A DNA stretch of 61,799 bases, the filler included, from Dugesia japonica (taxonomy: Eukaryota): assembly GCA_001938525.1 (NCBI GenBank). It is 5 parts of 5 records of this genome, joined end to end, with 100 filler letters (N's around TTAATTAATTAA, not from the genome) between each part and the next. Parts side by side here need not be neighbours in the genome. Positions count along the whole stretch, not along the records: positions 40,501 to 52,725 come from MQRL01580106.1; 4 more parts are not named here. One strand, written 5' to 3'. The notes below the pieces were generated by a model. It worked only from the letters and a program-made list of their open reading frames with translations, was not told where the DNA came from and made no database searches. The position numbers and the translations under genes are program-made. Below are positions 1 to 56,015 of the stretch, piece by piece. Position 1 is the first letter of the stretch. Each line of letters begins with the position of its first letter.

Positions 1-1397
1 TATTTCCAATAAATTTTTGATTTTAGATTTTTCCTTAATTTAATCTACTAAATAAAATAATTATTGATTTTCTGCATTAAGATCATAAACGTTTTCTAAA
101 TGAAATCTTACGAAGCCGAAAAATTTCAAGTTACTACATTTTTATCGGTTTTAGTATTTTTTAAATATTGTCTAAAGATATTTTTATGATTGTTTTTATG
201 ATATTTTGTCATGTGTGTATGCAATATAATTAATTAGTGCTAAATATAAACCCTAAAAATCCGTTAAATAATTGGAATTGGTAAGGTAGTTATAATATTA
301 AAGTGATAAAATAAGTTTTAGACACCGATATATTCATTGTGTTTTGCGTGTGTTAATCTTATAATTTTAGATTATTTTAATTTATTTTAATTTGGAATTT
401 CATTGAATTTAATTAAAAATCAATTTAAATTAACTAATTTCTATTATTGGATAATTATTTTTTATTGTTTGTGTGTATATTTTTTTGGAGATATATTTTA
501 TTGATTTTATTAATTTGGATCTAAAATGTATGTGCAAACCACATCAGATATTTGACAATATTTTTCTGTACAAAATGTATTTATATTTTGCCTATTTAGA
601 AATAGTTTGTGTGCAAACTTTCTAGCTCCAAGTGTAACACTACAAAGATTTTCGATTTCTCTTAATTTTGACAATAATTTACTATTTAACTTTTTGGACC
701 CTCCATAAATAACAAATTCAAATTATTTAAATTCGTTTTCATCACTAAGGTTCCAAAAATATGTAATATTATTGATATTTGTATGTATTTCGGATTTCAA
801 TTTGCATTGATAAATTTGAAATTTGATCTAAATATCAATGTAAATATGATCGTCACTTGGATTGAAATTGATAATGGAATTTCTACAATTTATTACAATT
901 CATTTTCATATAATTCCTCCTAAAGTATTGAAAAAATACATTTTGATTTATCGTTTTGGATAAAATACAAAATGAATAATTATTTTGAAATACTTATTTG
1001 TACATAATAGATTACACGATAGATTTTATGTGGTATACAATGTATATATTTTAAACTGTTAAAATAAAATGAAACTATCATTCTTGGTAATAAAAAGCAA
1101 ATATTGAGTTGAAAATGATCCTCTAAAAAATAAAAAAAATTCAACTTGGGCAATTAATATTTACCAATTTACTGTCTTGTGTAATATACTGGATATATCA
1201 NNNNNNNNNNNNNNNNNNNNNNNNNNNNNNNNNNNNNNNNNNNNNNNNNNNNNNNNNNNNNTAGAAAAATAATTCTATGCAACCAATATTTCACGGATTT
1301 ACAACAATCTCCTACAAAATACTGGCTGCAAAATGACAATTTAACAGTGCTATATATATTTTTGAAGTTATATAGTATAGTATAATAACTATAATAT

Positions 1398-7999: not shown

Positions 8000-9070
8000 C
8001 CGTTTCTTTTTTAAATATTTTTTGATTTCTGTTGTTTTCCACAAAATTTTATTTAATATTGCCGTATTGATTTTCCCTTTCTTTGCTTCATCATGTATCA
8101 TCTGACATTGAACAGAGGTTTCACACTTCAACCGACCTTACCACTGAAAACTCCTTTTCTATATTTAATAGCTATATACAGACTGCTTAAATAGTTAAGC
8201 CAAGTTTGAAACTGCAGAGTAATTGGCTTCTTTGTAGTCATCATAAAAGTTATTGCTTTATGACCTTTTCGAAAAATAGACGTTCTTCCATATAAATAAT
8301 GTTTGAAATACACACAAAAAATTGGTACACTGCTAACAATTCTTTCTCGTAATACAATATCCATTTTTGGTGGCTTGTCATTGAATCAAAAACATTTTCT
8401 TACTTTTTACTATCTTTTTACGATAAAACTGTCCTAGAAACTTGAATCTATATCCAGTAAAAATTCTTATCCAAATCTTAAAATCTGAGTTGTCTGCAAC
8501 GCGTCCTTTAACCCATAAAAAATATTGTTCAAATCAATTTTTTTATAAGTCCATCCGCTGCATAANNNNNNNNNNNNNNNNNNNNNNNNNNCATACCCTT
8601 TTATGAATGTTTACAATAATTACAAAATCTAGTTTCACACTTTAACCGAGATTACCATTGAAAACTCTTTTTGGAATTCAAGAAAACTTTAGATTTTTTC
8701 TACACAATTCGGTTGTCTAAAATTCCTAATACCATCTATCTTCATGATATTTGTACATAATCTTTTCTCCCTATTAATAAAACCTAGAAATTTAATCTCT
8801 TTCTGAAGAAACACACATTTCCCGCATTTATTCTCAATTCCACATCCATAATTCTTGACAACGCCCAGTCAATAATTCTATAATGTTCTTCTTTTGAATT
8901 GGAGAAAATTAAGATGTTATCTAAATAAACCAACGCCACAACCAAACTTTCTTTGACTTTCATCATAATCTCTTGAAACGTCAAAGGAGCCGCCACTAAA
9001 AACCGGATTGTCTTTCTTTGATAGAAAAAGCTATTTTCCCCTGACTCTTCATCGAACTTTACCTTATAGT
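8000..9070 (-). mobile_element. Decayed Gypsy/Ty3 pol fragment (RT-RNase H)
   Basis: AAPLTFQEIM...VYLDNILIFSNSKEEH (YxDD-like) and FKHYLYGR...HKAITFMMTTKKPI...WLNYLSSL (RNase H end). Many stops and frameshifts. Similar to the element at 52.8-55.6 kb. Confidence 0.8.
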
Positions 9071-10579
9071 ATGTGTTCCCTTAGTCATTCAAACTTCTTT
9101 CTGTTTCGGGCTCTGCAAATATTGTAGCTGAGAAAACCATTTACTCAAATGGCAGTTATCAAAATGTAACTAGCAATATTATTTGTTGAACCAAAATCAG
9201 AAATTTTTGAAAATGGAATTATGATATTGACAGAGAGATAGAAATAAATTATCGACAATAATGAGCAATAGAATAAAGAATAAGATTAATAATTGCTTTT
9301 TATTTAATAGTAAAAAACCGAAGGAACTTTTCTTACAACGTAATAGTGTGATGACCATTTTTCGTGTTTAAAGTTATCAGTGAACTAATTGTAGTTTAAA
9401 ACATGATCAAAAAATATAACAATTTGTCAACCGTTTCTTAAATGATGACCAATTAACAATTTCATAGAAAGTCTAAATTGAAAATGAAAATAAATATTAG
9501 ACTGAGAAATACAATAAAAAAGAAAGTTATGAAGTTGTATAAATTTACAATGTAAATTTTAGGTCAATAATAAATTATTAAGTTCGTGAATCCTGGAAAA
9601 AACTGACTGATTATACAGAATCCGTACCAAATAGATAAAATTCCAAAAAATGTATTTTAATCATTTAAAGTTCTTATGATAATGTTTCATTTATAGTTAA
9701 TCTCCAAAGGAAATATTAAATGTTGATAATAAAGAGAAGGTTAAAGACTAATTCTTGAAAAATTTCAATAAATTTAATTTTAAATTTATACACTAAACTT
9801 GAATTTCGTTGATGGCACCTATTTTAGGTTTGCAGATGGGTAACACGAACCTAGCGCTGACTGAGTAAATAGCACACATACACAATTATATATAAATATT
9901 ACAAAAAATAGTCTGATTTTAATAATTTCATAAAACCTACAATTTGTCGATCCGGCAAATGTATTTTTTCAACACCAATACTTTCAACAAATAATTGCAG
10001 AAACTGTAACAGAAAAAGATAGAAAAAAATACCTTTCGCCATGGAAAATTTATTATTATTGTATTTTATAGATTCAATTTTGTTTTAATCAATGGGAAGA
10101 TATCAATTATTTTTCACCGCTGAATGAGTTCAGGAATTATGAGATGAACAATTACTGTTGAAAATGAACAAAATTTTGGTTGACAGATTTTAGACCTAAA
10201 TAAAATTCTCTAGACTAGTTAAATATTCTGCGATATTTACAAATTTTTTTTCAAACAATTACCAACTTATTTAACAGTTGTTACAGCTTGTGACAAAAAA
10301 TGTGACGTTTTATTCTTTCTGTATTAATATAATATATAAATTTTGTAATAACGGTTTTCAATGATATTTTCGGATAATTATTGAATTATCAATATTTTCT
10401 GGAAAAATTCTAAAAATTATTTAAAACAGTTTCTTGTCAGTGAAAATCTTTTCTCATTAATAATAAACAAGCTACTTTGTTATCAAAAGCTTTGAAATTA
10501 TATAAAGATAATTACTGGAAAATAAGTTAACCAAAAAATGTAATCAAATATAAATAATAATTAGAAAATCATTTTAAAA

Positions 10580-10648: not shown

Positions 10649-10692
10649 NNNNNNNNNNNNNNNNNNNNNNNNNNNNNNNNNNNNNNNNNNNN

Positions 10693-39070: not shown

Positions 39071-39922
39071 CTATTTGTAACCAGATTCAAAGCTTATCAA
39101 ATTTCTATTTTTGACGCTAGATTTCAAATAAAAAATAACAAATACAATTAAATTTAAGCACACTAAACAAATGAAAATCCAAGTAAATGTGACTAGAACT
39201 GTGTAGGTATTACTAACAAGATTATATGATAAATTCTTACATCCAACGTAATATGTTAATTGTATTTCATCTATTAAGCAAAACGCCAATACTGCTGGTG
39301 TTTTGTTTTTTTGAAATTTTTCCAGTGCAATTGGATTGATTAAATCTTTATATGAAAGAAACCCACAACATTTCAGAACAATTTGAACTTTATCTAATAT
39401 TCTTGTAATTTCACCAATATCATTTTCTTTATAATATTGCGTTAAATTTTTTATTACTGGAATGTTGATTTTATCGTAATATTTACTGATAGTTTTGTTT
39501 AAAACATCATCAAATAATTGATATTCATGATATCGCAGAAATACTAATCCGAATATGACGCATAAAGCTACAGAAAGTGATAATAATATTATCAATGTGA
39601 TTAATATTGTTTCATATGGTTTTAATATACATTTTATGGCTAATAGAATAATGGAATAATTGAATATAGCGATTAGTAATAATGCTATTCCACAGTTATT
39701 GAAATGATTGGAAAATCCTTCTCCATCTAATAAATAATGTAAAATACTATTGTCTTTTTCAGTTACAACTCCACTTATTGTATCAATATTTGTAAAATCG
39801 ATGTTTGTTAATCGCCATGAAGAAAATTTCAACAAATAACAAGCTCCGATAAATAATAATAAATTTGCAATGGCTAGCAACACCGTTGATGTAACAGCTA
39901 CATTTTTAATGACTACCCGCAT
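39071..39922 (-). CDS. Intronless divergent tetraspanin
   Basis: Four hydrophobic segments. Large loop with LDKVQIVLKCCG..SYKD and a GC before TM4. Confidence 0.85.
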   Translation of the reverse strand: MRVVIKNVAVTSTVLLAIANLLLFIGACYLLKFSSWRLTNIDFTNIDTISGVVTEKDNSILHYLLDGEGFSNHFNNCGIALLLIAIFNYSIILLAIKCILKPYETILITLIILLSLSVALCVIFGLVFLRYHEYQLFDDVLNKTISKYYDKINIPVIKNLTQYYKENDIGEITRILDKVQIVLKCCGFLSYKDLINPIALEKFQKNKTPAVLAFCLIDEIQLTYYVGCKNLSYNLVSNTYTVLVTFTWIFICLVCLNLIVFVIFYLKSSVKNRNLISFESGYK

Positions 39923-40500
39923 ATTACTAAATCTTTAATAAAATAGATTTTTTTTTNNNNNNNNNNNNNNNNNNNNNNNNNNNNNNNNNNNNNNNNNNNN
40001 NNNNNNNNNNNNNNNNNNNNNNNNNNNNNNNNNNNNNNNNNNNNNNNNNNNNNNTTTTTTTTTGAATGAATATAATAATAAAATTAGAAAACCCAGAGTA
40101 TTATTGTAAGAAAGAAAGATAATGGACAAAATATGGAATTTATAAAACAATAGTTATAATTTTGAATGATAATCATAAAAGAATCACATAATTATTCTAT
40201 AACACAATTCGTTACAAATATCAAATTGTACATAAATATATGCCAATTTTTAATCATCAAATCTAAATGAATAGGTTCAAGATTAAACAACTTTTTTTTA
40301 ATAAAAATAAAATCCATTACTATGTACACATTTCTCCCATTAAGTTACAAGTTTATTTATCTCAATAGGATAGAAATCGTGAGCTCTGGATGCAAAGAAA
40401 NNNNNNNNNNNNNNNNNNNNNNNNNNNNNNNNNNNNNNNNNNNNTTAATTAATTAANNNNNNNNNNNNNNNNNNNNNNNNNNNNNNNNNNNNNNNNNNNN

Positions 40501-42480
40501 TAATTCGATATTTTCTTGTTTATATGGTTTATACTCTGTATTTGATGATCTATCATTAGTTAGTTTTTTTAACTTCAGCTCATCATCCATGTTTTATTGT
40601 ATGTACTCCTTGATGCTTTTCTAAATTTTTTATTTTTTCACTGTGGTTTTGCACAATCATGTGTTTTGCAATAAATGGGCAGAAACATGCTCCTAATTTN
40701 NNNNNNNNNNNNNNNNNTGCATGTAATTGTCCTAGAGAAAGTATTTGATGACCCGCTAATTTTAAAAATGTTACGACACACCACCCGAATAAAATACATA
40801 TATTGCCAAACCATTGCATTCCTCCCAAAAATCTATCTACGAAATTGCGCATTGCCCTTTTAAAATGATCTGCATACAATAGTGATTCAAAATTTACATC
40901 GTATCCATTACTCCCTCTTGCTACTTTATCAACCATTATTGATATTATTTTCTCTNNNNNNNNNNNGAAAAGCATATGTTTTCGCGCATTTTCAATATTG
41001 TTAATTGTATAAATACCGCGCTTTTCCATATTATTAATTCTTTCCAATTCTGTTGTTCTACCGAGCTCTATCATTTCCATCATTAGTGGAGTTGGTGCTG
41101 TATTTCTGTCCGACACTGTTATCCATACCTCTTCATTTATTTTGTACATAGGATCAAAAATGTTACTACATTTTTCAATCACTTTTGATTGATAATGTTT
41201 ATCCTTTAAAATCCTTGTTATTGAGAGCAAAAACACTTTTTCCCCTTATAAATTACTGGTAGTTCATTTGTACATTTCTCATGATCTGTAAGCGTAACGG
41301 CTACTGGTTTACATTGAAAACTCACTAAAGTTTCTCCCACTATTCTTCCAAATGTTCCTCTTTCCTCGAATAAGAGTGGTGCTACCAGATCCTGATTCGT
41401 GACTACCATTGCCATTTTTACTCTTAATAATTCTCGCTTAATTTTACAATTTCTCATCATTGTTTTTTGATATATTCTGTGTACTTGTCTTAAAAGTTCA
41501 TGATAGATAAAATCAATTTTATTGTTAAAATATGTAGCTATTTTTACATCCAATTTATCAACTTCTGGTCTGGCATCTTTTATTTCCTTTACTGATAAAT
41601 ACAATCCATTATAATCTGTCACTATTACTTCCACTCCACATTTGATATCTACTTCTTTCTCTATAAGCCTTAATGCTTCTTGTGTTGAATTTGATATATA
41701 TTGCTTTCTCACCAATTACTGTTGCTTTTCTTTTAGCATCTCGTATATTAGGTGGCTTGTCTGTCGGGAATGTTCCACTGACTTTTCACTTAGCTACTGT
41801 CCTTAATTTTGCAAGTGTACATTCAAATGGATGTACTTTATACACCATCATTGATTCTCCAGTATCACAACTTGTGTCTTTAAGGCTACAAAATGGGTGT
41901 GTCATCATTTTTCCTGTGGCAGCATCAAATGTTACCTTTATTTTCTTTAGTTCAACATGATATTGTCTTCGAATTAAAATTTCAGATTTCACTTGTCCCC
42001 ATATTCTATAATTTCNNNNNNNNNNNNNNNNNNNNNNNNNNNNNNNNNNNNNNNNNNNNNNNNNNNNNNTCATTCTCGCCCCAACTCTTGCTTGTAATTC
42101 GTACCCATGTACTTTCAACACTTTTGTTTTAAACGCTTTCTCACAATTACTCGCATCTACTACCATTATGTCTGGAGATCAAGCTGGTATTAGTGGTATA
42201 CTTTTTGTAGTATCACAATATGAAATTTCCTCTTCAAATTTTATACTACATTCGTATGCTTCTGCATGCACAAAATCGGACTCTTGATATAAATGCATGA
42301 TTATTGGATTTGATATTTTTATTTTTGTTGGATGCGCCTCTGGGCAATTTTTTACATTTAATAATGAATACTTTTCCCCCCATTTTGGATTATTACAATC
42401 ATATGCTACCATTGCATTTGCTCCTCTTGCTAATTTTAATAACATTATTATAATTGTTAATATTGTACCCATTAGTGGTC
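40501..42480 (-). pseudogene. Decayed viral fusion glycoprotein of the chuvirus / LTR-retroelement env type
   Basis: Signal peptide followed by AYDC...YSLLNVKNC, YFNNKIDF, GETLVSFQCKPV, CTNELPV, ITRIL, C...PMYKI...W, GIYT and a C-terminal hydrophobic anchor. Spread over four track ORFs joined by in-frame TGAs (42179, 41786) and frameshifts. Confidence 0.8.
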
Positions 42481-42559
42481 GATTTGATTTTTTATTTTCT
42501 TTATTAATAAGTTTCTTTATTTCATCTTCTTGTTCTGTTTGTTGAATTTTTTGTTTACT

Positions 42560-43030
42560 ATTATTTNTTGGATATAACCTTTCCCAACCTCCTTCTTGTG
42601 TGATCCACGCGTTAATTCCTTTATTCAAAAATTGATTAATTATTCGTTCAACAACCACAACGTTTTTATCAGGTTTCTCAACTAGTTGTTCTCTATTTTT
42701 GAGTATTAGATACAAAATAGCCGTGACTACNNNNNNNNNNNNNNNNNNNNNNNNNNNNNNNNNNNNNNNNNNNNNNNNNNTATTTTTGAGTATTAGATAC
42801 AAAATAGCCGTGACTACTTTATTTTTATTTATTCTTTCTTTCATCATTGTTTTTTATCACTTTATAATCATCAATTTCTGGATCTGCTATTATCAATTTG
42901 CTCACTTCTTTTAATATGAGTTTCATGTCTTCGAATATCATTAATGCTCTATTTTGAGTTATTATGCAATCATATAGATCAGCATGCACTAATTTGATTA
43001 GGCTTCTTATAAGTCCTTGATCTGATCCTG
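42560..43030 (-). pseudogene. Bcl-2-like domain upstream of, and in frame with, the glycoprotein
   Basis: BH2-like INAWITQEGGWERL. BH1-position segment VIKTMMKERINKNKVVTAILY (after a homopolymer frameshift near 42850), at the normal spacing once the gap-duplicated segment is removed. Confidence 0.6.
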
Positions 43031-43349
43031 CTGATGCTTGCTCATCGTATCTTTTTGCTATATTATTCAAATGTTCAACTTGCACTCTTTCTGGCATTAT
43101 ATCTTCTAGTTTTGGTCTACCTCTTGATCTTGTATAATCTGATACTTTGTCTTTNAATATTTTCTGTCTTGGCATTTCGCTTCTTACATCATCTGATGTT
43201 GATGGTTTTTCATTTCTTGTGGTTGATGTTGGTGACTGTTGTTGGCTTGATCTTTCCTCCTCAGCTTTATCTGCTTGTGCCATCATACTCAAAATTTCTT
43301 CCATAGATTGTTGTTGATCGTTTGTTAATATTTGCGGCTTATGTTTTAT

Positions 43350-43595
43350 GATTTTTGCTTTTATGATATTAATATTTCCTGGAATAATTCCATATTCCAT
43401 CAATGTTCTATTTTCCTTTCGTTCTGTATCATAGAATGATAGTTTTATCTCATCTTCATTTTTTAACAATTCTGGCCAATCTCTCTTTATTATTTCATAT
43501 AATTTATTCGTTTTCGTACAAGCATGTACTGTTAATTCTAATGCTGTCACTGAGCATTCGTTTTTTCATGCTACCACTTTGATCTTTAATGACTC
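43350..43595 (-). pseudogene. Ubiquitin-like domain in the same decayed ORF
   Basis: LKIKVVA*KNECSVTALELTV...TNKLYEIIKRDW...IKLSFYD...ENRTLMEYGIIPGNINII follows the beta-grasp pattern (cf. ubiquitin DGRTLSDYNI). In-frame TGA at 43566-43568. Confidence 0.55.
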
Positions 43596-45974
43596 TTGCA
43601 AAGTTTTGTTTCNTTTTATATATTCACTATATTTTTGAAATATCTCGTCTATTGTTTCTAACTTTTCTGGTATCTCTATTTTGTTTTGATTTTTTGCTAA
43701 CATGATTACTATTGGTTTAATCTTTTGAAAGTTGATAGGGTATTCACTAATATCTTTCAAATACTGTAACAATCTAAGTTCATTAATTCTTTCTTTTGTT
43801 ATTTTCAATCGAACATTCTCGATCAATATTTCTTGTTTCTTTTCATCAACTGCATCTAAACCCAGTAGAAGCCATGGTAGCCAGAATACAGGACTTTCGT
43901 GAGCGGCAAAGTTATCAGAACTGGACGGGGCCTGACCGAATCATCGCCACTTCGTTCCAGTATCAACCTTCAACCCCACCCCCAGGCATTTATTAACAAT
44001 TTGCTATGGGGTGTAAGAGAACTCTCGGGTGTGAAGGATTCAGAGAATACCGCACCCGTGACTGATTCAGCACCCACTCATTAGTGATTCATCTTGTTTT
44101 AGTTGCAATAAAATACATAGTTGTTTCCTGACTTATAACAAAATATTTTTCCTGTAAAATTATTTTTCTAATAAAAAACACAGTAATGATTGATGAATGT
44201 CCACCGGGTAACAATAGGTGTAAGTGGTTGGTGCAATTCACCAAATCTTTATATAGTGTTTTATTAATTTCATTTATTCTAGTGCACTCATCATTGAATC
44301 GCGTTACGGCCCCGACCAAGAAAGTGAGAGCTTTTAGTGATGAAACCGAAATCATTTAGGATTACTATAAGTTGGTCAAGCGACGCTGGGAAGCTGATGT
44401 CGCAGACGCTGATGCCAAGGTTCGGCGTTATTGCCACTTATTGTTTTAGACGTTCAATACTATAACAAATCAAATTTCAAGTCAAGACGAATTCTTTACT
44501 ATTTAAATAAAGTGATGAAAACCAAATTAATCAAAGTGTATATGTTCCAGAAAAANTTTCTTTCTATTCATATAGTAATAATCAATTTTAGTAATAATTA
44601 ATACGATTAATCATATATACTTTTCAATTTTAACTCATCTGAATGATTCAGGTAATTTTAAAAACCTTTTGCATTTTATTAGTCTGTCTATTTTTTAGAT
44701 AATCTTGTTTAATTAAAATAAAACTTTTGGCAACAAGTGTTGAGGTGTTCAAGTTACCTGTTTATGTTAAACGGCTAAACTATTGGTAATTCTTTCAATA
44801 AAATATATAGATGCGTTTTCTCTTGGAAATACTATATAATAATCTCTAATTATTGAAATGGTACAACTTAAGTAGAACTTTGAGAGGAATTTTGTAATTA
44901 TAGTTCATCAATAAATTCTATTAAAATATAATGTTCATTTAGTTATTTATTGTTATGACCTATTTCTAATAAATAAACCAATTAAACATTATACACCAAA
45001 TACATAAAAACTTACAAAATAAATATTATTAAAAAGGCTAAATTTTACATGACTCTGATCTAACAAAAGTGTTTTCTATTCTAAGAGCCTAATTATGGTG
45101 TTATAGGAGAGAAAGTTATATTTCTAGATAGTTTCATTCGTCTTTAAATATTCGGTTCAAATTAAGTTGTCAACATTTGATATTTTTAATATTTTTATTT
45201 TTGAATAATACTTATAATTTAATTGTACAACCCTAAAAATCCATGCTACCTTTATTTTTTATTTTTTTATTTCCTTAAATTAATATGTTTATCCTATTTT
45301 TGTTTCTTAATGAAATTCCGTAATGTTTTTCTTAATTCCTGTAGTGTTTTTATCAGGTGGTGTTATTCATGACTTTAGGGTGTTTTNTTAAGTCTTGGTA
45401 TTTCATTCAGCAACTATTTTCATTTTTAGATTATTTACTGATTTATTTAAGGACTCTTATCAACTTTTAAGTCTTATTTCTTCTCTATTTTCTTTATTTT
45501 TTTTTAAGTATCTACTTTTATGTTTGATTTTTTTTCACTGTTATTGCCACTCGATTCTTGAAATAATTTTTGCATTATTTCATTGAATATAATGTTTAAA
45601 TGAAAAACAGTATAAACTAATTTTATAATAATTTTCAGTTAACAAAAAAAAGTCGATTCCTGACGAAGAAAACGTCGGAAATTAGATTTATTATCAAAAA
45701 CCAAAATAAATTTGATCGAAGCTTTATTTTAGTGAAATCTCAATGAAGATCAATGGTTACGTCAAACAATTATTATCGCAATAATTGTAATTGTAAAACT
45801 AATAACTTTTACCTAATTTATTTTATAAAAATATTTGAAGTTTTACTGATTTAAAAAATTTTTTTAAACTAAAATGAAAAAATAAAAATTAACCAAATAG
45901 TCTAATAACGTATTTCTTTGTTTAAATTAATATTGTTACAGCAACGTATACTGTGCAGAATTAAATTGGAAAAA

Positions 45975-46092
45975 ATGAAATTTAAATATTTTACTCCAAA
46001 TCAAGTTGCGCTGCATAATAATATTGATGATTTATGGGTTTCTTTCTTAGGCGAAGTTTATAATTTGACTTCTTTATGTGACAAATATAAAG
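45975..46092 (+). CDS. CYB5D1: Cytochrome b5 domain-containing protein 1, exon 1
   Basis: [34 protein letters not shown]...YKG matches the CYB5D1 N-terminus. Confidence 0.88.
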
Positions 46093-46136
46093 GCACATAT
46101 AACTATATTATTATTAGTTTAATGATTTTTCTCCAG

Positions 46137-46432
46137 GGGATGTTTTGATTAAACCAATATTAGAAGCTGGTGGAACTGACATATCTCATTGGTTCGATCA
46201 CAAAACAAAAGATATTCGCCATTACATAGATCCAGTAACAAATTGTAAACTTTACTATACTCCATATGGGAGATTTGTTCATGTTCCACCACCATTTCCT
46301 ACGACCGATTGGAACAATGATTATGGCCGAACATGGTGGAAAGATAGTACTTACATTATGGGAAAATTGTCTACAAAAATTCGACAAATTTTATTAGTTA
46401 ATACTCTTACTAAAGAAAGACATGTTCTCGAA
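46137..46432 (+). CDS. CYB5D1: CYB5D1 exon 2
   Basis: Acceptor ctccag, then [20 protein letters not shown]...[11 protein letters not shown]...WWKD...[11 protein letters not shown], then donor GTATGA at 46433. Confidence 0.92.
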
Positions 46433-47269
46433 GTATGAAATTTTTCGTTTATTCTTTTAAAATTATTACAAATTTAAATTAATTAATAATTATAATTTAA
46501 TTGTGATAAAAAATTATCTATTGGTGAAATTTTCCAACGAAATCTAAATTACCATTTTTTATCAATTAAGAAATATAATTATTTTACATTGTCCTTTTTT
46601 TCTCATTTTGTCGTTTGTCTTATTGATCAAACCTTGATTTTTAGCTAGATTTTCAATCAACGAAATATGTGAAAAATGATTTCTTTCAATAAATTTTTTC
46701 AAATTCATATCAATTAAATTTATTTATATTAATTAATTAATTATATTTTAATCTGATATTTTTCAAATTAGATTATGCAAAATTTTCAATAAAATTAAAG
46801 AATATAGATCAAAATATTTTTTTAAAATCCAATAATTATTTTTTTTATAATTGTAATAATAGAATATTCAAATCAATAATTTAATAGTTTTTAATCAATA
46901 ATATTTTCTATAAAATTATTTTCAAGCACTGTATAAATTCTTTGATAATTTCCACGCGAATTGTATAGAATCAGTTAATCAATAATATTTATTAAAATAA
47001 AAAAGAAAATCTATAGTATTTTGATGAGATTAATATGTGAGCTGTTAATTGGCTAATTAATATGCGAGCTGCTAATTGGCTGATTAAAATTAAACTAATG
47101 GCAGTTTTCGGTACTTTTTTAGTTTTCTCCACATTTTTAAAATTTTTGTTTTACCATAATTTTAGTATAACAAAATTATTCAGAGCTCTATATAATTTGT
47201 CGGTTTCTTATTCTTCATGGAAGATTTAAATATATTTACTTTTTTTCTGCATTTTTCCTGCAACAACGA

Positions 47270-47430
47270 GAGAATCACTACAAAATTTTGTAGACCCAAT
47301 CACAGGAGTTAACACGCAGAGTTTAATGTAATTGGAATCTAGCAAAAGCACAAAATAAGAGGCATTATGGAACCAATCGCCAGATGTTAGACATCTACCT
47401 ATGCGAGTTCATGTGTCGAAAACGTCTTGG
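47270..47430 (+). mobile_element. Merlin/ISXO2-like transposase C-terminal remnant in CYB5D1 intron 2
   Basis: NFVDPITGVNTQS...HYGTNRQMLDIYLCEFMCRKR matches the Merlin pattern FVDP.TG.HTQ.IE...YL.EF.WR. Confidence 0.7.
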
Positions 47431-48037
47431 AGATCTCAGTGGTTATGATTGTATTTTGGCCACCAAAGTAGCTTATTACGTTTGGAATTCATTAATTAAT
47501 TTAATAGTGTTTATTAATAAACTTTATTATGTTCAAATTATGGTAAAACAAAAATATGAAAAATGTGCATTGAATCTAAAAATATGCTAATATTAAGGAA
47601 TTTTATATAATGTCGAAACTTTTCCCCTGTTGAATACCAAATTTTCATTATTTTTATGTAATCTCTATAATTTAATTTCAATTTGAAAATTAGCGTTCTT
47701 TAATTGGTTCTTTATTCATTGGCATGCTCTTTTTAATCTTGATTCGAAATTTGTGCACAACTTCGAAATTTTAAATTGTGTAAAAATTTTGACTAATGGA
47801 CAGCATTAATCAAATTAATCAACAAATCGAAAAATATATAAAGAATAGAGGTGGGTGTTTCCATATTAACAATTCTATTATTTTCAGAGTGCAGAAATTA
47901 CCAGCTTTGTTTGTTGACATAAACTTGAAAATAATCGAATTTTCTTAAGAAAATTCCATTGATATTGAGATTTTGAATACCAATCATATAATTCATCCTC
48001 ATTTTCTTATTAGATTGTTGGTTTCAATCGTTTAAAG

Positions 48038-48561
48038 CAGTGGTTCTTAACCGGTGCACCGCGGAAATATGGTAAAAAACTAAAAATTCTCAGAAGATGT
48101 GAAAACCTAAAAATGCTTCACGAAATTATGATTGCCGACGAATCGATTTTATCTAATCGATTATATATGTTGTCTTGCGTTGAATGGGGTTCACTCCCCC
48201 TCCATANNNNNNNNNNNNNNNNNNNNNNNNNNNNNNNNNNNNNNNNNNNNNNNNNNNNNNNNNNNNNGTCAATTCATTATGACATTTGCATCATGACACC
48301 ATGAAAAACCAAGACACGCATTGAATAGTACTGGACTAAACCATTACAAATAATCAAGATACAGAACCTTAGATGAAGAAGCATGCATACTAGATTAAGA
48401 TTCGAATCCATCACAATCCAGGTCGAGGTTAAATACTTGATCCTAATAAAGTTTATGTTCGCATATTTTTCTTTGTTTTTTACCCGTTTGATTTTAGTGC
48501 ACCACTATTTTTTCCTATGATAAAAAGTGCACCATAACTTCGAAAAGGTTAAGAACCATTG
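48038..48561. mobile_element. hAT-family MITE with 8-bp TSD in CYB5D1 intron 2
   Basis: CAGTGGTTCTTAACC...GGTTAAGAACCATTG TIRs flanked by GTTTAAAG (48030-48037 and 48562-48569). Confidence 0.85.
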
Positions 48562-50541
48562 GTTTAAAGGAACAAATAAAGGTCCAACTTTCTAATTCGA
48601 TGTCTTGTTCATAGTTTGTATGCGTTCTCCTTATCTTTCTCATTTTTCTGGGTTTTATTATATATTTTTAGTACTTTTTTGGTATTCTTGATATTAGATA
48701 TTGATTCTTTTATTTTATTTCTTCAATATTATTCCAAAAAATTTCCGTAGCCTTGAACTTTTTATGTTATTTTCATCGCTGTTTCGTAAATTGTGTGGTA
48801 ATTTCGAAATATTTTCTTGAAATTTTTCACAATTTTTAAAGGTGATTAAAATTCGTCATGACTTATAACCTTGAAAACTCGATTTTCACTTAAATATATC
48901 AAAAGGATCAATCTATTATTTAATCCATGAAACAATCTACACTTTCAATAAAAAATACGATTTATATACAATATTTTATTGAATATATATTCTAAAATTT
49001 AAATATTTTTTTGCATAACTTTTAGAGTTATGTATTTTTGTTGGAAATTATATAATATTTATCTATCTAATACCGTGCTCGTAGACCCATTTCAATCATT
49101 TGAACGAGTTTTATTTGATTATGCAAAACATTAGACGCAGCATACTACTCTGTCAGTTGTAAGTTTTCCATGTTTTATGTTATCCGGAATTATTTCACAT
49201 TGATAATATATTGCACGGTCGATTCTAGACAATTGGTGTGTATNNNNNNNNNNNNNNTTACCTTTCAATATTCAATATTTATGTTTGAAGTAAAGAAGTT
49301 TTATTTTTAGTGAATAGCAAAAATGCTATTATTTTTATGTATAAACTAAGATATGCTGAGTTTTTTTAATTTAAATAATAATCGTTACCTTGAAATAATT
49401 TAAACTTCCAATTGTGGGGGGTTGTACACTGCGAATCAATATATGAAAAAATAATCTGATGAAACACGGAAGAAAATTAAACCAAAATACGAATCAGGAA
49501 AGTAATATATAGATATTAGCATAGACCTTGAAATAAAATATGAAATTGTTAGGAGTGTAATTAACAAGTTTAAGAAACAAGCACAAAACGAATTTTACAA
49601 AAAAAAATTCAATGAAAATTGTTCAATTACTTTAAAATCAATCAAAAGTTTTTTATACGCTCAAAAAAAAATTAGTATTTCGATTTCGACAATCTAAAGG
49701 GCTACAGAGTTTTTTTATTTGACGAAATAGTTAATTTATGTGAGAAACCGTGTAAGATAGCCAGTTAATATTTTCCAGTATATCAATATTTTCTTATAAT
49801 ATTTTTTTTATATTTAACAGACCGTATAACCAGTTTAAATCCATGTCTTGGGCCATACATGCAAAATTTTCGGGTCGAAGGTTGTGCATCTTTGATATTA
49901 TTATATATATAACACTGTTAAATTGTCATTTTACAGCTAGTACTTTGAAGGAGATCGTTGTGAATCCATGAAATATTGGTTGTATTGAATTATATTTCTA
50001 TAATAAAATATATTTTGGATTTTTCACAGACTTGGGTCGCGGGCCGCATGTAACATAGTCGCGGTTCGTATATTGTGCACCCCTGATATATTATATCATT
50101 CTGAAATATTTTAATTAATTTGGAATAAAGCTGTTCTGTAATTACTCCTTTTTATTCATTTTTATTTTGGGTTTTCTTCTTATTTGAAGACAATAAACTT
50201 CATCTTTAACTACCAAAACCATTTAAAAATAAACCTTGATGTTTGATAGTTGTTTATTAACAATATTAAATAATCAGCTTCTTTTAAATATTCCTTGAAA
50301 AATTATTTTTTGCAGAAAATTACCCGGTATAATTATTGTCATCAGTATTTCTTGTATTAAATATTTATTTAGTTTCCCTAAAATTTCTCTCGATATATTA
50401 ATAGCCCCTAAAATAGTTTTGAAAAATTCTTTTGAAAAATAAATTGGTAGAATCACCGAGAAACAATGTGGGGGTGACTTAATGAGTATCAACTATCAAA
50501 CTGAACAATTTACTATTGAAAATTCGTACATACTCATTTAG

Positions 50542-50772
50542 GTGTGTTCAGAAGATACAATTAGTGACATCATGGAGAGATATTTGCATTATAATTCTCA
50601 TTGTGGTTCTTACACTTGGAAACACAACCAAGTTGTTCTAGATATGGATAAAACATTATCAGAAAACAATATTCCTGATGAAGACGAAGAATTTTACCAA
50701 CTGAAAATTAATGATGCCGAATTTTTGACAACTCTTCACTTATATTATAATGATGATCTTACAGAAGCATGA
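50542..50772 (+). CDS. CYB5D1: CYB5D1 exon 3 (terminal)
   Basis: Acceptor tttag at 50537-50541, then VCSEDTI...RYLHYNSHCGSYTWK...LDMDKTLSENNI...LHLYYNDDLTEA*. Confidence 0.92.
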   Translation: MCSEDTISDIMERYLHYNSHCGSYTWKHNQVVLDMDKTLSENNIPDEDEEFYQLKINDAEFLTTLHLYYNDDLTEA

Positions 50773-51991
50773 TTTCACATATTAATTTATTTTGATTATG
50801 TAATACAATACCAAATTGTGTTTTATTTATTTATTATTTATTTAATGCATTATAGATTTTACAATTACAATTATTACGAGAATAACTGTTGGACTTAACC
50901 ATTGATCGTTTTTGATATTTCATTAAATTAAAATCTTTGATCAAAATATTGTTTTGTTTCTTTTTATTTCTTTATTTGGTAGTTATCTAAATTTTCGACT
51001 ACTGTCTTCTTCAGGAATTATTTGAGCCATATTATAATTTGCATTGTTTAAAAATTTATTGAGAATTGCTATTCGATTAAACGGAGGATCGTTTAGTGCA
51101 TTATTGAATACATGGAGTAGCGTGTCTTTAAAAAGGCATAGGGTAAGGAAACTTGCTACGTTAAACAACGTGTTGAATACGAATTTGGTGTCGGTGAAAT
51201 GATAGTTGGCGTCTATGTTAATAAAAAATGTAAACGTAGGTCCAGTGAAATTTTGTATGTTAGATAAACTGCTATGTGGCATCGACTTCATAATTAAGAA
51301 TGAAATATTTCTCAGAAACGAGGTTACCATTATATTTTCAAACATTTAATCACACGGAGTTGTTGAAAATTAGAGTTTGAAAGTCTGTATAGTAAATAAT
51401 ATACCAAGAGAGGAAGAATTAGTAGATACATGCACAGAGAATTATTAGAGCTTACTGATTAAAGACAATTATTTTAAAAACATAGTTTGACTACGATAAA
51501 TAAAAATACAATTATTCAACACAGATATACAAAGTAGGAATTGGAGAAATATGACGAATTCAAGACCGTGTTTTCCTTGTGAATGTGCAACAAGTAAAAG
51601 AAGGTAAAACGAAAGAGTACCGTGTAATTTATTACAGGTTCTTAAATGATCAAATTGTTAGCCTTTCAGGTTGGTTGCTTCCTAGTTCTCAAGATAGATT
51701 CAGAGAATGACTCGTGTGAGGGCTTTATTGCGCTGTTATGAACCTTATAAAGACGTACCTACAAATCAGAGTCAAGAAAGCTTTGTGGACTTGTCAAGTT
51801 TTGCGGTTTGATGACAAGTTGGATGTCATGATTTGATTATAGCAAATTGATGATGAATCAATCAATCTGCTAGTCAACAGATCTTATTTTAAAAATATTT
51901 TAAATACTAATTCCAAGAACTACTTAAGAATTTATTTTAGAGTACGTTTAATACTATTTTCTCATCAAATCGATCATTTATTCTTATTTTG

Positions 51992-52475
51992 CATATTGTT
52001 AGTAATTTATTGTCATTAGCAGGTGAAACGTTTTTCTTACTTTTTGCTCTATTTATTTTAATTCCTTATTTTTTAACACCATTTTTATGAACTATCCTTT
52101 TGCACCAGTATCAAAAACCTTAAAATTATTTGGAATTATATCGTCAAAGAATTAAAAAGAAATTTTTCAAAAAATTAACTAAATTAAATCATGGAAATCA
52201 TTATCGTTNNNNNNNNNNNNNNNNNNNNNNNNNNNNNNNNNNNNNNNNNNNNNNNNNNCATATTGTTAGTAATTTATTGTCATTAGCAGGTGAAACGTTT
52301 TTCTTACTTTTTGCTCTATTTATTTTAATTCCCTATTTTTTAACACCATTTTTATGAACTATTCTTTTGCACCAGTATCAAAAACCTTAAAATTATTTGG
52401 AATTATATCGTCAAAGAATTAAAAAGAAATTTTACAAAAAATTAACTAAATTAAATCATGGAAATCATTATCGTT
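51992..52475. repeat. ~217-bp direct duplication across an N gap
   Basis: 51992-52208 is about equal to 52259-52475 with few mismatches. Probably an allelic or assembly overlap. Confidence 0.7.
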
Positions 52476-52669
52476 GTTATTGTATGAACAATTAGTTCTG
52501 TGCATAATTTCGTTAAGTTTTTATACAAATATTTTATTTAATTCAAATTATTAAAATACTTTTTAAAATACTAAAAAATAGAAAATTTAAAGTTTTAATG
52601 TTGTTTAAATGAATCAAATAAGACAAAAGTACTAAAAGTTTCATTTTTTCAAATGTGATAACATTTAAA

Positions 52670-52725
52670 ATGGAAGATAGAAAAGAACATTTTAGGCACA
52701 TATTGCTTTATTATTTCTGGAATAG
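52670..52725 (+). mobile_element. Start of a mariner transposase, truncated by a gap
   Basis: MEDRKEHFRHILLYYF is a typical mariner N-terminus. Confidence 0.6.
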
Positions 52726-52825: not shown

Positions 52826-55543
52826 GTCGTCATCATGAATGTTAGAGCTTTATAATCTGTTCTAAGAGTAAATCTTCTACCGTACAAACAGTGTTTGAAG
52901 TGCATGCAGAAATAATAAACAGCCAATAATTTCTTTCGTGTGATCCAATATCCATTTTCCTGACTCGTCATTGAGTGTGATCTATAGGCAACAACTCTTT
53001 CTCTTCCTTCTTTATCTCTCTGTGACAATACTGCTCCAATCGTTTCAATACTGGCATCCGTATCTAATATAAATTCTTTGTTTATGTCTGGAAAATACAA
53101 TATTGGTGCAGTCATTAGAGATTTTTTCAGACTCTCAAAGGTATCGTTTATTTCATCTGTCCATTCTAATTTCTTGTTGATTGGTCCGCTACACAACTGC
53201 TCTAATATTTTTGATTTTCTTGCGTAGTTTTCTATAAATTTTCTAAAATAATTACAAATTCTCAAGAAACTTCGTAATTTCTTCAGTTAGGTTTGCCAAA
53301 TGTTTTTATTGCTTTTATTTTAGACGGATCAGTTCTGACACCATCCTTGCTAATTAAACTGGTGCCTCTGCGATGCCAAATAGAATTCTATTAAAACATT
53401 ATTGTCCATGCTTTGTTGGAGACGCCGTTATTTCTTGAGATTCTTCTTTGAGCTCTACTTCATAGCATGCATTTTCTAAATCCGTTGAACTGAAATATTT
53501 AGCTCTATCTAACTTTTCCAGCATTTCATCAACATTAGGGATAGGAAAGGTTTGTCTTTTCGTTACTGCATTCAATTGTTTGAAATCGAAACGAATTCGT
53601 CTTTTTTTTCGTCTTTCGTCTTTCTTTTTTTTTCAAACACAAATCAGTGGGGTATTTCATGGAGAGTTGCATTTCTAGATAATATTTTTCTCGAAAAGGT
53701 TTTGGATAGCTTCTTCAATTTTAGATTCTAAGTNNATTGGTTGTCTATACGGTTTTACATTGATTGGTTCACCACTTGTGATTATTTTGTGTCTTATCAG
53801 ATGTGTGCGTCCTACATATCATTTATCTGCCATAAAAGCATCTTCTTTACTTCTAATTATTTTCAATAACCGTTGATTTTCTTTAATCTTCAAAATATTT
53901 AAAGATCTTGTCAATCGCTTTCCTTTTTTAATTAGTCTTCCGAATTTCGGTTCAATATTGCAAATGTAATTTTCGACTTTTCATCCGTTTTGTAATCAAC
54001 CTTTCGCATAAGCTGATTTTCAAAAATCTTCTGCATATCTATTCCTCTTATCACATCTGGTGTCACTCTTTCAGCAACTAAGAAGGTAACCTCTCTACAA
54101 ACGTCATCAATTATCACACCGGTTCTAAATTTTCCAACAATTTTAAGTGTACTATTATTTGCACAACGCAATCTTTCATCACTCATTACTAAATGTATTT
54201 CTCGTAATTTATTAAATCAAATCAAACTCATTACGTTTATTCGAGTCCCTGTATCTAATAGACATTCAACTTTATTTCCTTGAATTGATACCGGAACACT
54301 TGGTCTGCCTTGCTCTTTATGGTACGCATTATTTGTTTTCTTTTCTTCTTTAACTGTTCCAACTCATTCTACTTTTTTATCATCTGCAAAGTTTTCCCAC
54401 TTTTAGAACCTGTATACTTTTTCTGTACTTTTTTCTATATCATTCCACTTTTTGACCCCTTGAGGATAATTACTCACTTCATTTAATCATAAATTGCTCC
54501 AACCAACTCTTCTACTAGTGGAGCCTTGCCTTTTGGGTACTACCTTTCGGAATCACTTTCATATACTTCCTCATACCCATCGCTTATACTGACATCTTCA
54601 TGTTCAATCGAATGTACTCGAATTTATCGGTTTCTTGATCTATCTGCAGTCATAAATTTCTCACTTGGTCTTTTAATTTTTAAATTTGTGTAGCACTCTT
54701 CTGTTCTATGTCCACCATTACCACATCGTTTACACCTCACTTCTTGACATAACCTTCTAATATGACCAACCTTTCCACAACTAAAACATTTTGATGGTTT
54801 TTTATTTGGACAATCTCGACTTATATGTCCTGTTTTATGATAAGTCCAACACTCTACCACTTTCTTTGTCGGAGAATCTGCTTTATTATTACCGATCCTT
54901 TGACATGACCAACATTCGATATGTTGTTTTTCCTTTCTTTGCTTCACATTTCTATTCACAGTATGATTTACTGGTTTCTGATAATTTCGATTTGTAACTC
55001 TCGCGTAACTTTTAACTGCATCAACTCAATATCTATTTTTCTCTATTCGATCTACTAACGTCATTGTTTCTTCAATTTCTTCTAAATTCTCTCGTTTCCG
55101 GAAAGTCACTTCTTCTTCAACTGTTTTGTTATCTGAACAATATACTAGCATCTTTGCTACCTTTTTGTCTTTTGTAAAATCTTTTTTTGTAAATAATCTT
55201 TCCACTAAATCTTTTACATTTTTAAAATAAACTTGAATCTCTTAATTTCCACGCCTGTAGTTAATAAAATTTTGAAAGTTTTTGATATCATCTTTCTATT
55301 TCTCAAATGCCATACGTAAACGATCCTGAAATCCTTCAACTTTTTTTAACGTCTTTGCATATTCTTCCAACAAATCTTCATCTAACATACAAGAGAGTAA
55401 TCTCTCCTGTTGTTTCACATGGGTGATGTTTTTAGCTTCAAAATAAAATTCACATTGCTTGATGAATTTCTCAATATCCTCTCTGCAGAACACATTCAGC
55501 AATAACCTCTCTGTAATAGAATCTGTATTTACCGCTGCCCCCA
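52826..55543 (-). mobile_element. Decayed Gypsy/Ty3 LTR retrotransposon internal region (gag-PR-RT-RNase H)
   Basis: gag with four CCHC knuckles (54624-54959), protease CLLDTG (~54250-54270), RT with SP*NTP and FGIAEAP but the YxDD segment deleted, and RNase H FILDTDAS...GAVLSQ...RTDYKAL. Integrase is lost in the gap. Confidence 0.9.
55531..55543 (-). promoter_or_regulatory. Putative primer binding site
   Basis: The minus strand reads ...TAACA|TGGGGGCAGCGGT: an LTR-like CA end followed by a TGG-initiated tRNA-complementary tract just upstream of gag. Confidence 0.6.
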
Positions 55544-56015
55544 TGTTAGATATAACTACAATTGGTAATTTATTTTGCAAATCATTACTAATATTTTGAG
55601 ACATCATTTAATTTACTACTACAAACAACGTTTCATAATATAAATAAAATCGAAATACAAGCATTTCAATATTAGTATTTATATAACTCAATTTCTATTG
55701 GGTGAAATTATTAATTAATAATTATTTCCTCATAATTTTTATTATTATTATTATTAGATATTTTGGGGAGAAATAACAATTTATTTATGCTGACTCCAAA
55801 TTTTACTTAATTTTAAATGCGTGAAGGTTTATAGATAATTTTAATATGATAATAATAATAAATTTAGATAACACAATTTATATTTAAAGATTTATTAATC
55901 AAATAATATTTGTACAATAAAAAAATTACAAATAATAATATGTTTAGTGATTTTTAGGATTTAGCGTAAACCGCTCTATATTGATTTTAGCTGAAAGATG
56001 AAAACCGGTATTACA
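55544..56015 (-). repeat. Possible 5' LTR of the Gypsy element
   Basis: The minus strand runs TGTAATACCGG ... TAACA. No second LTR is present to confirm it, so the outer boundary is a guess. Confidence 0.3.

Follow-up and report, generated by a model that had tools for sequence, protein, structure and literature searches.

A decayed polyprotein fragment, very probably from a Burro/GYPSM1-type giant Ty3/gypsy element, with putative Bcl-2-like and class III envelope domains in Dugesia japonica

Giant Ty3/gypsy elements of the Burro1-4/GYPSM1 group (Jurka 2007; Grohme 2018; both according to Arkhipova & Yushenova 2019, PMC6431247) are known in planarians. As described in that review, a Ubi2/SUMO-like domain, a BCL2 domain and env follow one another in frame within the 4,873-aa ORF1, and the block sits between gag and pol. 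The intact polyprotein, about 4,900 aa long, begins with Gag and continues, in this order, with accessory domains, the SUMO-like, BCL2 and Env domains, protease, dUTPase, RT, RNase H and integrase. Burro env matches mononegavirus fusion glycoproteins, its top HHpred label being gypsy Env. Copies number in the thousands, D. japonica is reported to harbour decayed pieces carrying stops and frameshifts, and in another planarian accessory domains can be separate ORFs (PMC6431247). A second set of elements, Smed_errantivirus_1-6, has been catalogued by Chary & Hayashi (2026; PMC13524379) as GAG-ENV-POL elements of the HSV/gB type, showing 31-64% mutual identity in 12 of the 15 pairs. The six span 14.5-18.0 kb, compared with 14.6 kb for Burro ORF1. 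The word Burro does not occur in the main text of that eLife paper, nor are Bcl, ubiquitin or apoptosis mentioned there; that these six belong to Burro is our inference from size and order. Chuvirus glycoproteins, in turn, occur as solo endogenous elements and within Pao elements, and the mosquito BEL/Pao elements called Anakin carry one (PMC7642597). Troyka elements (PMC12440569) were judged irrelevant to the locus described here.

The window analysed is a stretch of 61,799 nucleotides of D. japonica DNA (assembly GCA_001938525.1), made of five parts of five records separated by 100-letter spacers; it is AT-rich animal DNA, with host exons at 45909-46438, and look-ups of its tetraspanin and Polinton proteins matched no host. 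The locus of interest lies in the part from MQRL01580106.1 (positions 40,501 to 52,725), where the minus strand is tiled between 40583 and 43940 by six stop-to-stop ORFs, each of at least 80 aa. As originally predicted, these join into a single frame of more than 1000 codons: the repaired route (40583-43860, minus strand) comprises 1,092 codons, and is broken by three in-frame TGA stops (43566-68, 42179-81 and 41786-88) and three frameshifts (~42850, ~41720 and 41230-45), placed by three-frame translation and, in the glycoprotein part, by colinear positions on the Pfam profile PF24664. The copy analysed is missing from the sequencing runs used (best word share 0.34), and individual stops and frameshifts could therefore be assembly errors; this copy itself makes no protein. 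The contig ends at 40501, next to the spacer at 40401-40500, so that the end of the ORF is out of view. At the other side, copies represented by contigs of runs X1 and X4 depart from the window sequence at 43860, which places 43861-43940 outside the element ORF.

The locus very probably derives from the interior of a giant Ty3/gypsy element of Burro/GYPSM1 type (a GAG-ENV-POL errantivirus) of a dugesiid planarian; the copy is dead and truncated at its 5' side. The assignment is based on domain order, fusogen family, high copy level and the close relationship between its glycoprotein and those of Schmidtea elements, Burro having been compared through its published description. Features shared with Burro/GYPSM1 are the order of SUMO/ubiquitin-like, BCL2 and env domains in one frame, though the ubiquitin-like label is weak here, a mononegavirus-like env, a very high copy level, and decay by stops and frameshifts. 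Unlike the described elements, which have long LTRs and exceed 30 kb, the locus is known from an internal piece alone, truncated to 3.3 kb, which shows no gag, MATH, BIR, pol or LTR. Three published BURRO1 primers find no match in the window (5-8 mismatches). The architecture of ubiquitin-like, Bcl-2 and env domains is thus real, but already described; the earlier claim that no such env was on record is overturned by the order published for Burro (PMC6431247).

The rear two-thirds of the repaired frame encode a fusion glycoprotein. Its ectodomain (40820..42412, minus strand) belongs to the Monjiviricetes/HSV-gB-type (class III) family, and includes two of the stops (42179-81 and 41786-88), two of the frameshifts (~41720 and 41230-45) and runs of N. 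Pieces of the glycoprotein match PF24664 with E values of 6e-11, 3.1e-23 and 4.8e-19, at colinear profile positions (4-124, 251-411 and 408-611 of 653) across the broken frames, and BDV_G with E 0.0035; the chuvirus-type assignment of the original prediction holds. A gB-like class III fold is suggested by these profiles, and by published protein models of chuvirus and errantivirus glycoproteins. Whereas the review labels Burro env as gypsy Env (PMC6431247), the Pfam matches and PMC13524379 point to the gB type. By hand count, 81 of 153 residues (~53%) are identical to the Env of Smed_errantivirus_3, in two nearly ungapped blocks covering domains I-II, and seven of eight cysteines of that protein are matched, the eighth falling in a run of 54 N. 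Among 229 class III sequences, the motif THPFC, picked after viewing two Smed rows, is confined to Smed elements 1 and 2, and six further motifs of the window, also picked after the match had been seen, are confined to Smed elements. The locus represents a sister family of Smed_errantivirus_3, not the same element; the published comparison (PMC13524379) concerns Env domains I-II, not leaders.

The ectodomain is followed by a predicted transmembrane anchor (40751..40819, minus strand; hydropathy up to 1.80), which aligns with the anchor of an env relative, L001, 35% identical, in which reading frames with few stops continue past the tail. Here a cytoplasmic tail, and then high-copy sequence, run to the contig end (40501..40750, minus strand; depth 20,939 at 40501-40650 in run X1), beyond which protease and pol would lie. 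Searches for further relatives were poorly productive. Scanning metagenomes for the env locus yielded 1 of 213; the glycoprotein pieces found 0 of 2,661 and 0 of 408 database proteins at E up to 0.001, among candidates of up to 2,000 aa, a range which leaves out full polyproteins; PDB sequence searches returned nothing useful; and scans of viral contigs gave 0 of 7 and 0 of 22.

PF24664 being a Monjiviricetes glycoprotein family, and chuvirus glycoproteins being found in solo endogenous and Pao elements (PMC7642597), the sequence could be taken for an endogenized gene of a chuvirus-like RNA virus, or for an env carried by an Anakin-like BEL/Pao element. With Anakin the locus shares the fusogen family and its capture by an LTR element; Anakin, however, is a BEL/Pao element of mosquitoes, and a ubiquitin-like or Bcl-2 leader is not mentioned in the portion of PMC7642597 considered. 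Leader and env occur together at very high copy level, the closest sequence is an env borne by a planarian Ty3/gypsy element, by eye no L or N gene is recognised among the contig ORFs, and neither viral-contig scan gave a relative. All this makes a viral or Anakin-like origin very unlikely.

Upstream of the ectodomain, an internal signal-like hydrophobic segment (42413..42478, minus strand; 19-residue hydropathy up to 1.78) ends in an A-x-A cleavage site recognised by eye. It is preceded by a putative Bcl-2-like helical domain (42584..43085, minus strand), interrupted by the frameshift at ~42850 and by an assembly gap, and ending in the BH2 motif WITQEGGW (42584-42607). Six-frame translation of the window shows the pattern W[IVL]xxxGGW a single time, and none of 2,000 base shuffles of the element contains it. 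PF00452 is matched with E 0.013-0.08, under the cut-off (14.8-16.4 bits against a gathering score of 31.4), and 26 of 28 weak PDB matches are to the Bcl-2 family. The BH1 signature NWGR is missing from this copy in alignments inspected by eye, and the 54-aa BH2 piece gave no usable Atlas match. The predicted Bcl-2 domain is hence supported by its BH2 motif and PDB matches, but not by the Pfam gathering score or by BH1; the sequence signals are weak but consistent. As in BFL-1/A1 and BCL-xL, BH2 (W-x-x-x-x-GGW) is followed by about 35 polar residues and a hydrophobic segment; in contrast to cellular and viral Bcl-2 proteins, the domain lacks NWGR, is located inside a polyprotein, and has a putative anchor which doubles as Env signal.

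The short-read scaffold is rich in N runs, and no aligned run contig covers the whole stretch, nor is any read shown to bridge the gap at 42731-42780. Chance nesting, or a mis-assembly joining unrelated Bcl-2 and ubiquitin-like sequence to the glycoprotein, might be suspected. Yet translation confirms that WITQEGGW, the hydrophobic segment (from 42478) and the AYDC start of the ectodomain lie in one uninterrupted frame, on the same side of the gap, downstream of it. The gap itself (42694..42817) is made of 50 N flanked on each side by an exact 37-nt duplicate (87 nt, frame kept), as expected of an unmerged overlap. One contig of run X8 covers 42464-42622 with 5 differences, and the domain order was already published (PMC6431247). 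In runs X1 and X4, one contig each connects env sequence at 41387 with leader sequence at 43372. An artefactual junction is scarcely credible: leader and glycoprotein are linked by descent, as the original prediction had it.

Both parts are highly repeated. In run X1, from which 9,357 contigs aligned to the window (not a calibrated copy number), summed depth is 5,654-35,144 in leader bins and 6,740-109,039 in env bins, but 8.9-10.4 in the flank at 44551-45000; an excess over the flank by factors of hundreds to thousands denotes a high-copy repeat. In one RNA run, 96 reads aligned, 87 of them below 90% identity and not one reaching 99%, which suggests that other family members are weakly transcribed.

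The leader opens with a helical segment (43590..43860, minus strand), 5'-truncated in this copy at ~43860, that aligns with a metagenome protein, P0003. The following segment (43344..43589, minus strand; stop at 43566-43568) is a putative ubiquitin/SUMO-like domain. Low-confidence structure models show a strand-strand-helix-strand pattern, PF11976 is the Atlas lead (0.82-0.84) for P0003, a homologue of the leader, and Burro carries a PF11976 annotation at the matching position (PMC6431247). The predicted ubiquitin fold was not recovered, either as a Pfam match or among 50 fold-search rows: the model of the segment has a pLDDT of 53.5, at which a missing match excludes nothing, and its best hits are to split barrels (Z 5.3), while the whole-leader model (pLDDT 35) has no Foldseek match. 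The ubiquitin-like label draws on weak signals, and the fold is unconfirmed in the segment model. A low-complexity linker (43086..43343, minus strand), rich in S, T, Q and E and modelled as helix then coil, leads to the Bcl-2-like domain. The leader had 2 matches in a representative protein set, one of which, P0004, was dropped as an ankyrin protein; the leader locus scan of metagenomes gave 0 of 593, and the one Rfam match (E 0.37) is at chance level.

The original prediction placed these domains in the env ORF of an enveloped retroelement or virus. The retroelement origin stands, as a decayed polyprotein, but a separate env ORF with its own N-terminus does not. Because the Burro block is in frame inside ORF1 (PMC6431247), the leader most likely represents a middle portion of a gag-env-pol polyprotein. 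A free-standing ORF with its own start, belonging to a split-ORF Burro relative or a non-autonomous derivative, would accord with the separate accessory-domain ORFs of another planarian (PMC6431247), with the gene call of P0003, which opens with Met near the matching position of the leader, and with an in-frame ATG seen by eye in run X1 copies beyond 43860, the point at which other sequence takes over in 20 X1 contigs and 12 X4 contigs. However, P0003 lies on a contig of 1,286 bases, and that codon is not ATG in X4, both X1 and X4 being open nine codons upstream, a weak argument. Published elements hold the block inside ORF1 (PMC6431247), and PMC13524379 places the nearest relative among GAG-ENV-POL elements, so a free-standing ORF is improbable. 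No gag, pol, LTR or element end is attached in the contig; a Polinton (11-26 kb) and a gypsy gag-pol (52.8-55.6 kb) were rejected as neighbours, since they lie on different contigs across spacers.

In intact elements coding for such a polyprotein, the internal signal segment would insert the chain into the ER, and cleavage by signal peptidase would set the Env ectodomain free on the lumenal side. What remains of the signal segment would tether the half from Gag to Bcl-2, still cytosolic, to the membrane. The Env anchor would bring the chain back to the cytosol for Pol, and the element protease would trim both halves. The Bcl-2-like domain would probably dampen apoptosis in cells expressing the element. 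A topology like that of tail-anchored Bcl-2 proteins, in the ER rather than in mitochondria, is plausible. That the Env signal segment of intact elements serves a second time, to anchor a functional Bcl-2-like inhibitor in the membrane, is possible, though doubtful. In the literature considered the domain order is in print, but a signal-anchored Bcl-2 topology was not found; Grohme 2018, Jurka 2007 and Lee 2026 may discuss it.

As found, the locus matters little, since it is a further dead piece of a planarian element that has already been described. It adds a sister family at ~53% Env identity. It also connects the env of Burro with class III fusogens of the gB type and with the errantiviruses catalogued as GAG-ENV-POL in 2026 (PMC13524379). 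Were the anchored Bcl-2 true, the making of each Env molecule would also yield one anti-apoptotic domain fixed in the ER membrane, and with it another survival function in addition to the B-IAP activity published for Burro1. This would provide a testable mechanism by which an enveloped retroelement prevents the death of its host cell, and would bear on the role reported for Burro1 in planarian stem-cell survival (as relayed in PMC13465017).

The stretch at 40583-43860 (minus strand) is a real element, and the reading given to it in the original prediction is correct; its architecture has already been described. Six stop-to-stop ORFs of at least 80 aa have been identified on the minus strand between 40583 and 43940, separated by three TGA codons and three frame changes. 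The repaired route across them totals 1,092 codons, in agreement with the proposed intronless frame of more than 1000 codons. A leader (putative ubiquitin-like segment, linker, probable Bcl-2-like domain) is followed by a signal-like segment and the Env glycoprotein. The BH2 motif WITQEGGW (42584-42607), the segment resembling a signal and the beginning of the glycoprotein had been assigned to a single frame, and indeed share one, on the same side of the 50-N gap at 42731-42780. An exact 37-nt duplicate lies on either side of this gap.

Scanned singly, three of four ectodomain pieces match PF24664, Monjiviricetes_fusion (E 6e-11, 3.1e-23 and 4.8e-19); the piece at 41789-42178, scanned alone, does not. 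The matches are colinear and span model positions 4-611 of 653, which supports the chuvirus-type fusion glycoprotein originally called and identifies it, at the sequence level, as a fusogen. BDV_G matches the glycoprotein at E 0.0035, and hydrophobic segments begin near 42478 and near 40819. Chuvirus and errantivirus glycoproteins have been assigned to class III via modelling, according to statements in PMC7642597, bioRxiv 10.64898/2026.08.30.748148 and PMC13524379.

That no env of such architecture had been described is not tenable, as the same order is printed for Burro/GYPSM1, giant planarian Ty3/gypsy elements (PMC6431247). In passages of that source, ORF1 is 4,873 aa long, with Gag first, and includes in order a Ubi2/SUMO-like domain (PF11976), BCL-2, an env region matching arthropod and fish mononegavirus fusion glycoproteins, and protease. 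By hand count, the window Env and Smed_errantivirus_3, a Schmidtea GAG-ENV-POL element (PMC13524379), are identical at 81 of 153 residues (40/80 plus 41/73; 53%) with one gap, and a 19-residue N-masked stretch of the former equals in length the 19 intervening residues of the latter. Six window Env motifs, chosen after this match was seen, are all present in the Schmidtea element, and absent from the non-Schmidtea rows among 229 sequences. Order and size suggest that the Schmidtea elements are Burro families. The stretch at 40583-43860 is very probably a Burro-type fragment, recognised from its leader and env.

Of the upstream domains predicted, the Bcl-2 one stands as likely. The BH2 pattern occurs once in the window and in 0 of 2,000 shuffles; PF00452 matches the domain at E 0.013-0.08 (14-16 bits, below the 31.4-bit cut-off). 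Among 28 weak PDB matches, 26 are BFL-1 or BCL-xL chains (E 0.28-2.6), and the best two are designed armadillo repeats. BH1 NWGR was not found in the domain by eye. For the ubiquitin-like segment, Pfam and PDB profile searches gave no match. A two-sequence model has strand-strand-helix-strand order (pLDDT 53.5), and fold searches with it returned no ubiquitin. The sole leader homologue, the metagenome protein P0003 (E 2.2e-4, 24% over 220 aa), has Atlas leads to PF11976 (0.84) and PF00240 (0.82), both below the 0.9 bar and ranked behind three unnamed clusters; ubiquitin-like identity is a lead.

In a metagenome contig (L001), positions 343-1233 hold an env of this type that has also decayed; it shares 35% identity over 116 aa and has the same anchor. 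Behind its tail come about 570 bases of unannotated frames that look coding, with no useful Pfam match. This contig and P0003 suggest related elements in other hosts.

The element is a decayed repeat. Part of the stretch is contained in 12 of 24 listed runs, none holding half or more; 4 of the 12 were aligned to the window. In run X1, 9,357 contigs, mostly 90-99% identical, were placed on the stretch. Summed depth, which is no copy number, ranges from 5,654 to 35,144 across the leader and from 6,740 to 109,039 across env; at 44551-45000 it is 8.9-10.4. A single-copy gene is therefore excluded, high depth covering both halves. At two of the breaks, the stop at 43566-68 (5,727/5,776 depth, X1) and the frameshift at 42850 (28,063/36,995), most other copies do not agree with the window, as counted on the rows listed, beyond which lie 732 more; these breaks are therefore not family-wide. 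Since other copies depart from the window at 43860, the window copy is truncated there. In one RNA run 96 reads fall on the stretch, none at least 99% identical. Among RNA reads (X14) of related copies over 40501-43950, first mates fall mainly on the minus strand, with few start sites; should the library read opposite to RNA, the transcripts may be antisense.

The window is a concatenation, with N-TTAATTAATTAA-N spacers at 10649, 27541, 40401 and 52726. The element therefore extends to its contig end and does not adjoin the Polinton or the gypsy gag-pol found elsewhere. The rest of its contig holds a lower-copy repeat and a host gene. The repeat (43861-44550), GC-richer (39%) and of lower depth, adjoins the truncation point; 44219-44467 (minus), with TG start, CA end, AATAAA and a depth peak, resembles by eye a short LTR. 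Exons of the host cytochrome b5 domain gene, presumably CYB5D1-like, lie at 45909-50770 (plus strand; PF00173, E 4.6e-5), beginning about 2 kb from the fragment. A near-complete Polinton/Maverick-like element occupies its own contig (10749-27540), with a double-jelly-roll capsid (PF21738, E 1.6e-17), an integrase ORF that includes a phospholipase A2 domain of parvovirus type (PF00665, PF08398), a long ORF with zinc fingers resembling by eye protein-primed PolB, a packaging ATPase judged probable by eye, and a weakly matched C5 protease. Another contig carries at 52826-55607 an ordinary Ty3/gypsy gag in decayed form, with zinc knuckles, together with RNase H and protease-like pieces; no env separates gag from pol there. 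More fragments of RT and RNase H, from a gypsy-like element, lie at 8128-9080. An uninterrupted tetraspanin ORF (39071-39934; PF00335, E 1.9e-9) has no relative among 3,904 candidates.

Burro encodes a single polyprotein, according to a passage of PMC6431247. From general membrane-protein biology, the internal signal segment would insert it at the ER and signal peptidase would release Env; the Gag-to-Bcl-2 half would be cytosolic and stay tethered, and Pol, being beyond the Env anchor, would be cytosolic. BURRO1 is reported to be silenced by piRNA (PMC8532177) and to serve stem-cell survival via a BIR/RING region (second-hand in PMC13465017). The Bcl-2 domain may have an anti-apoptotic role.
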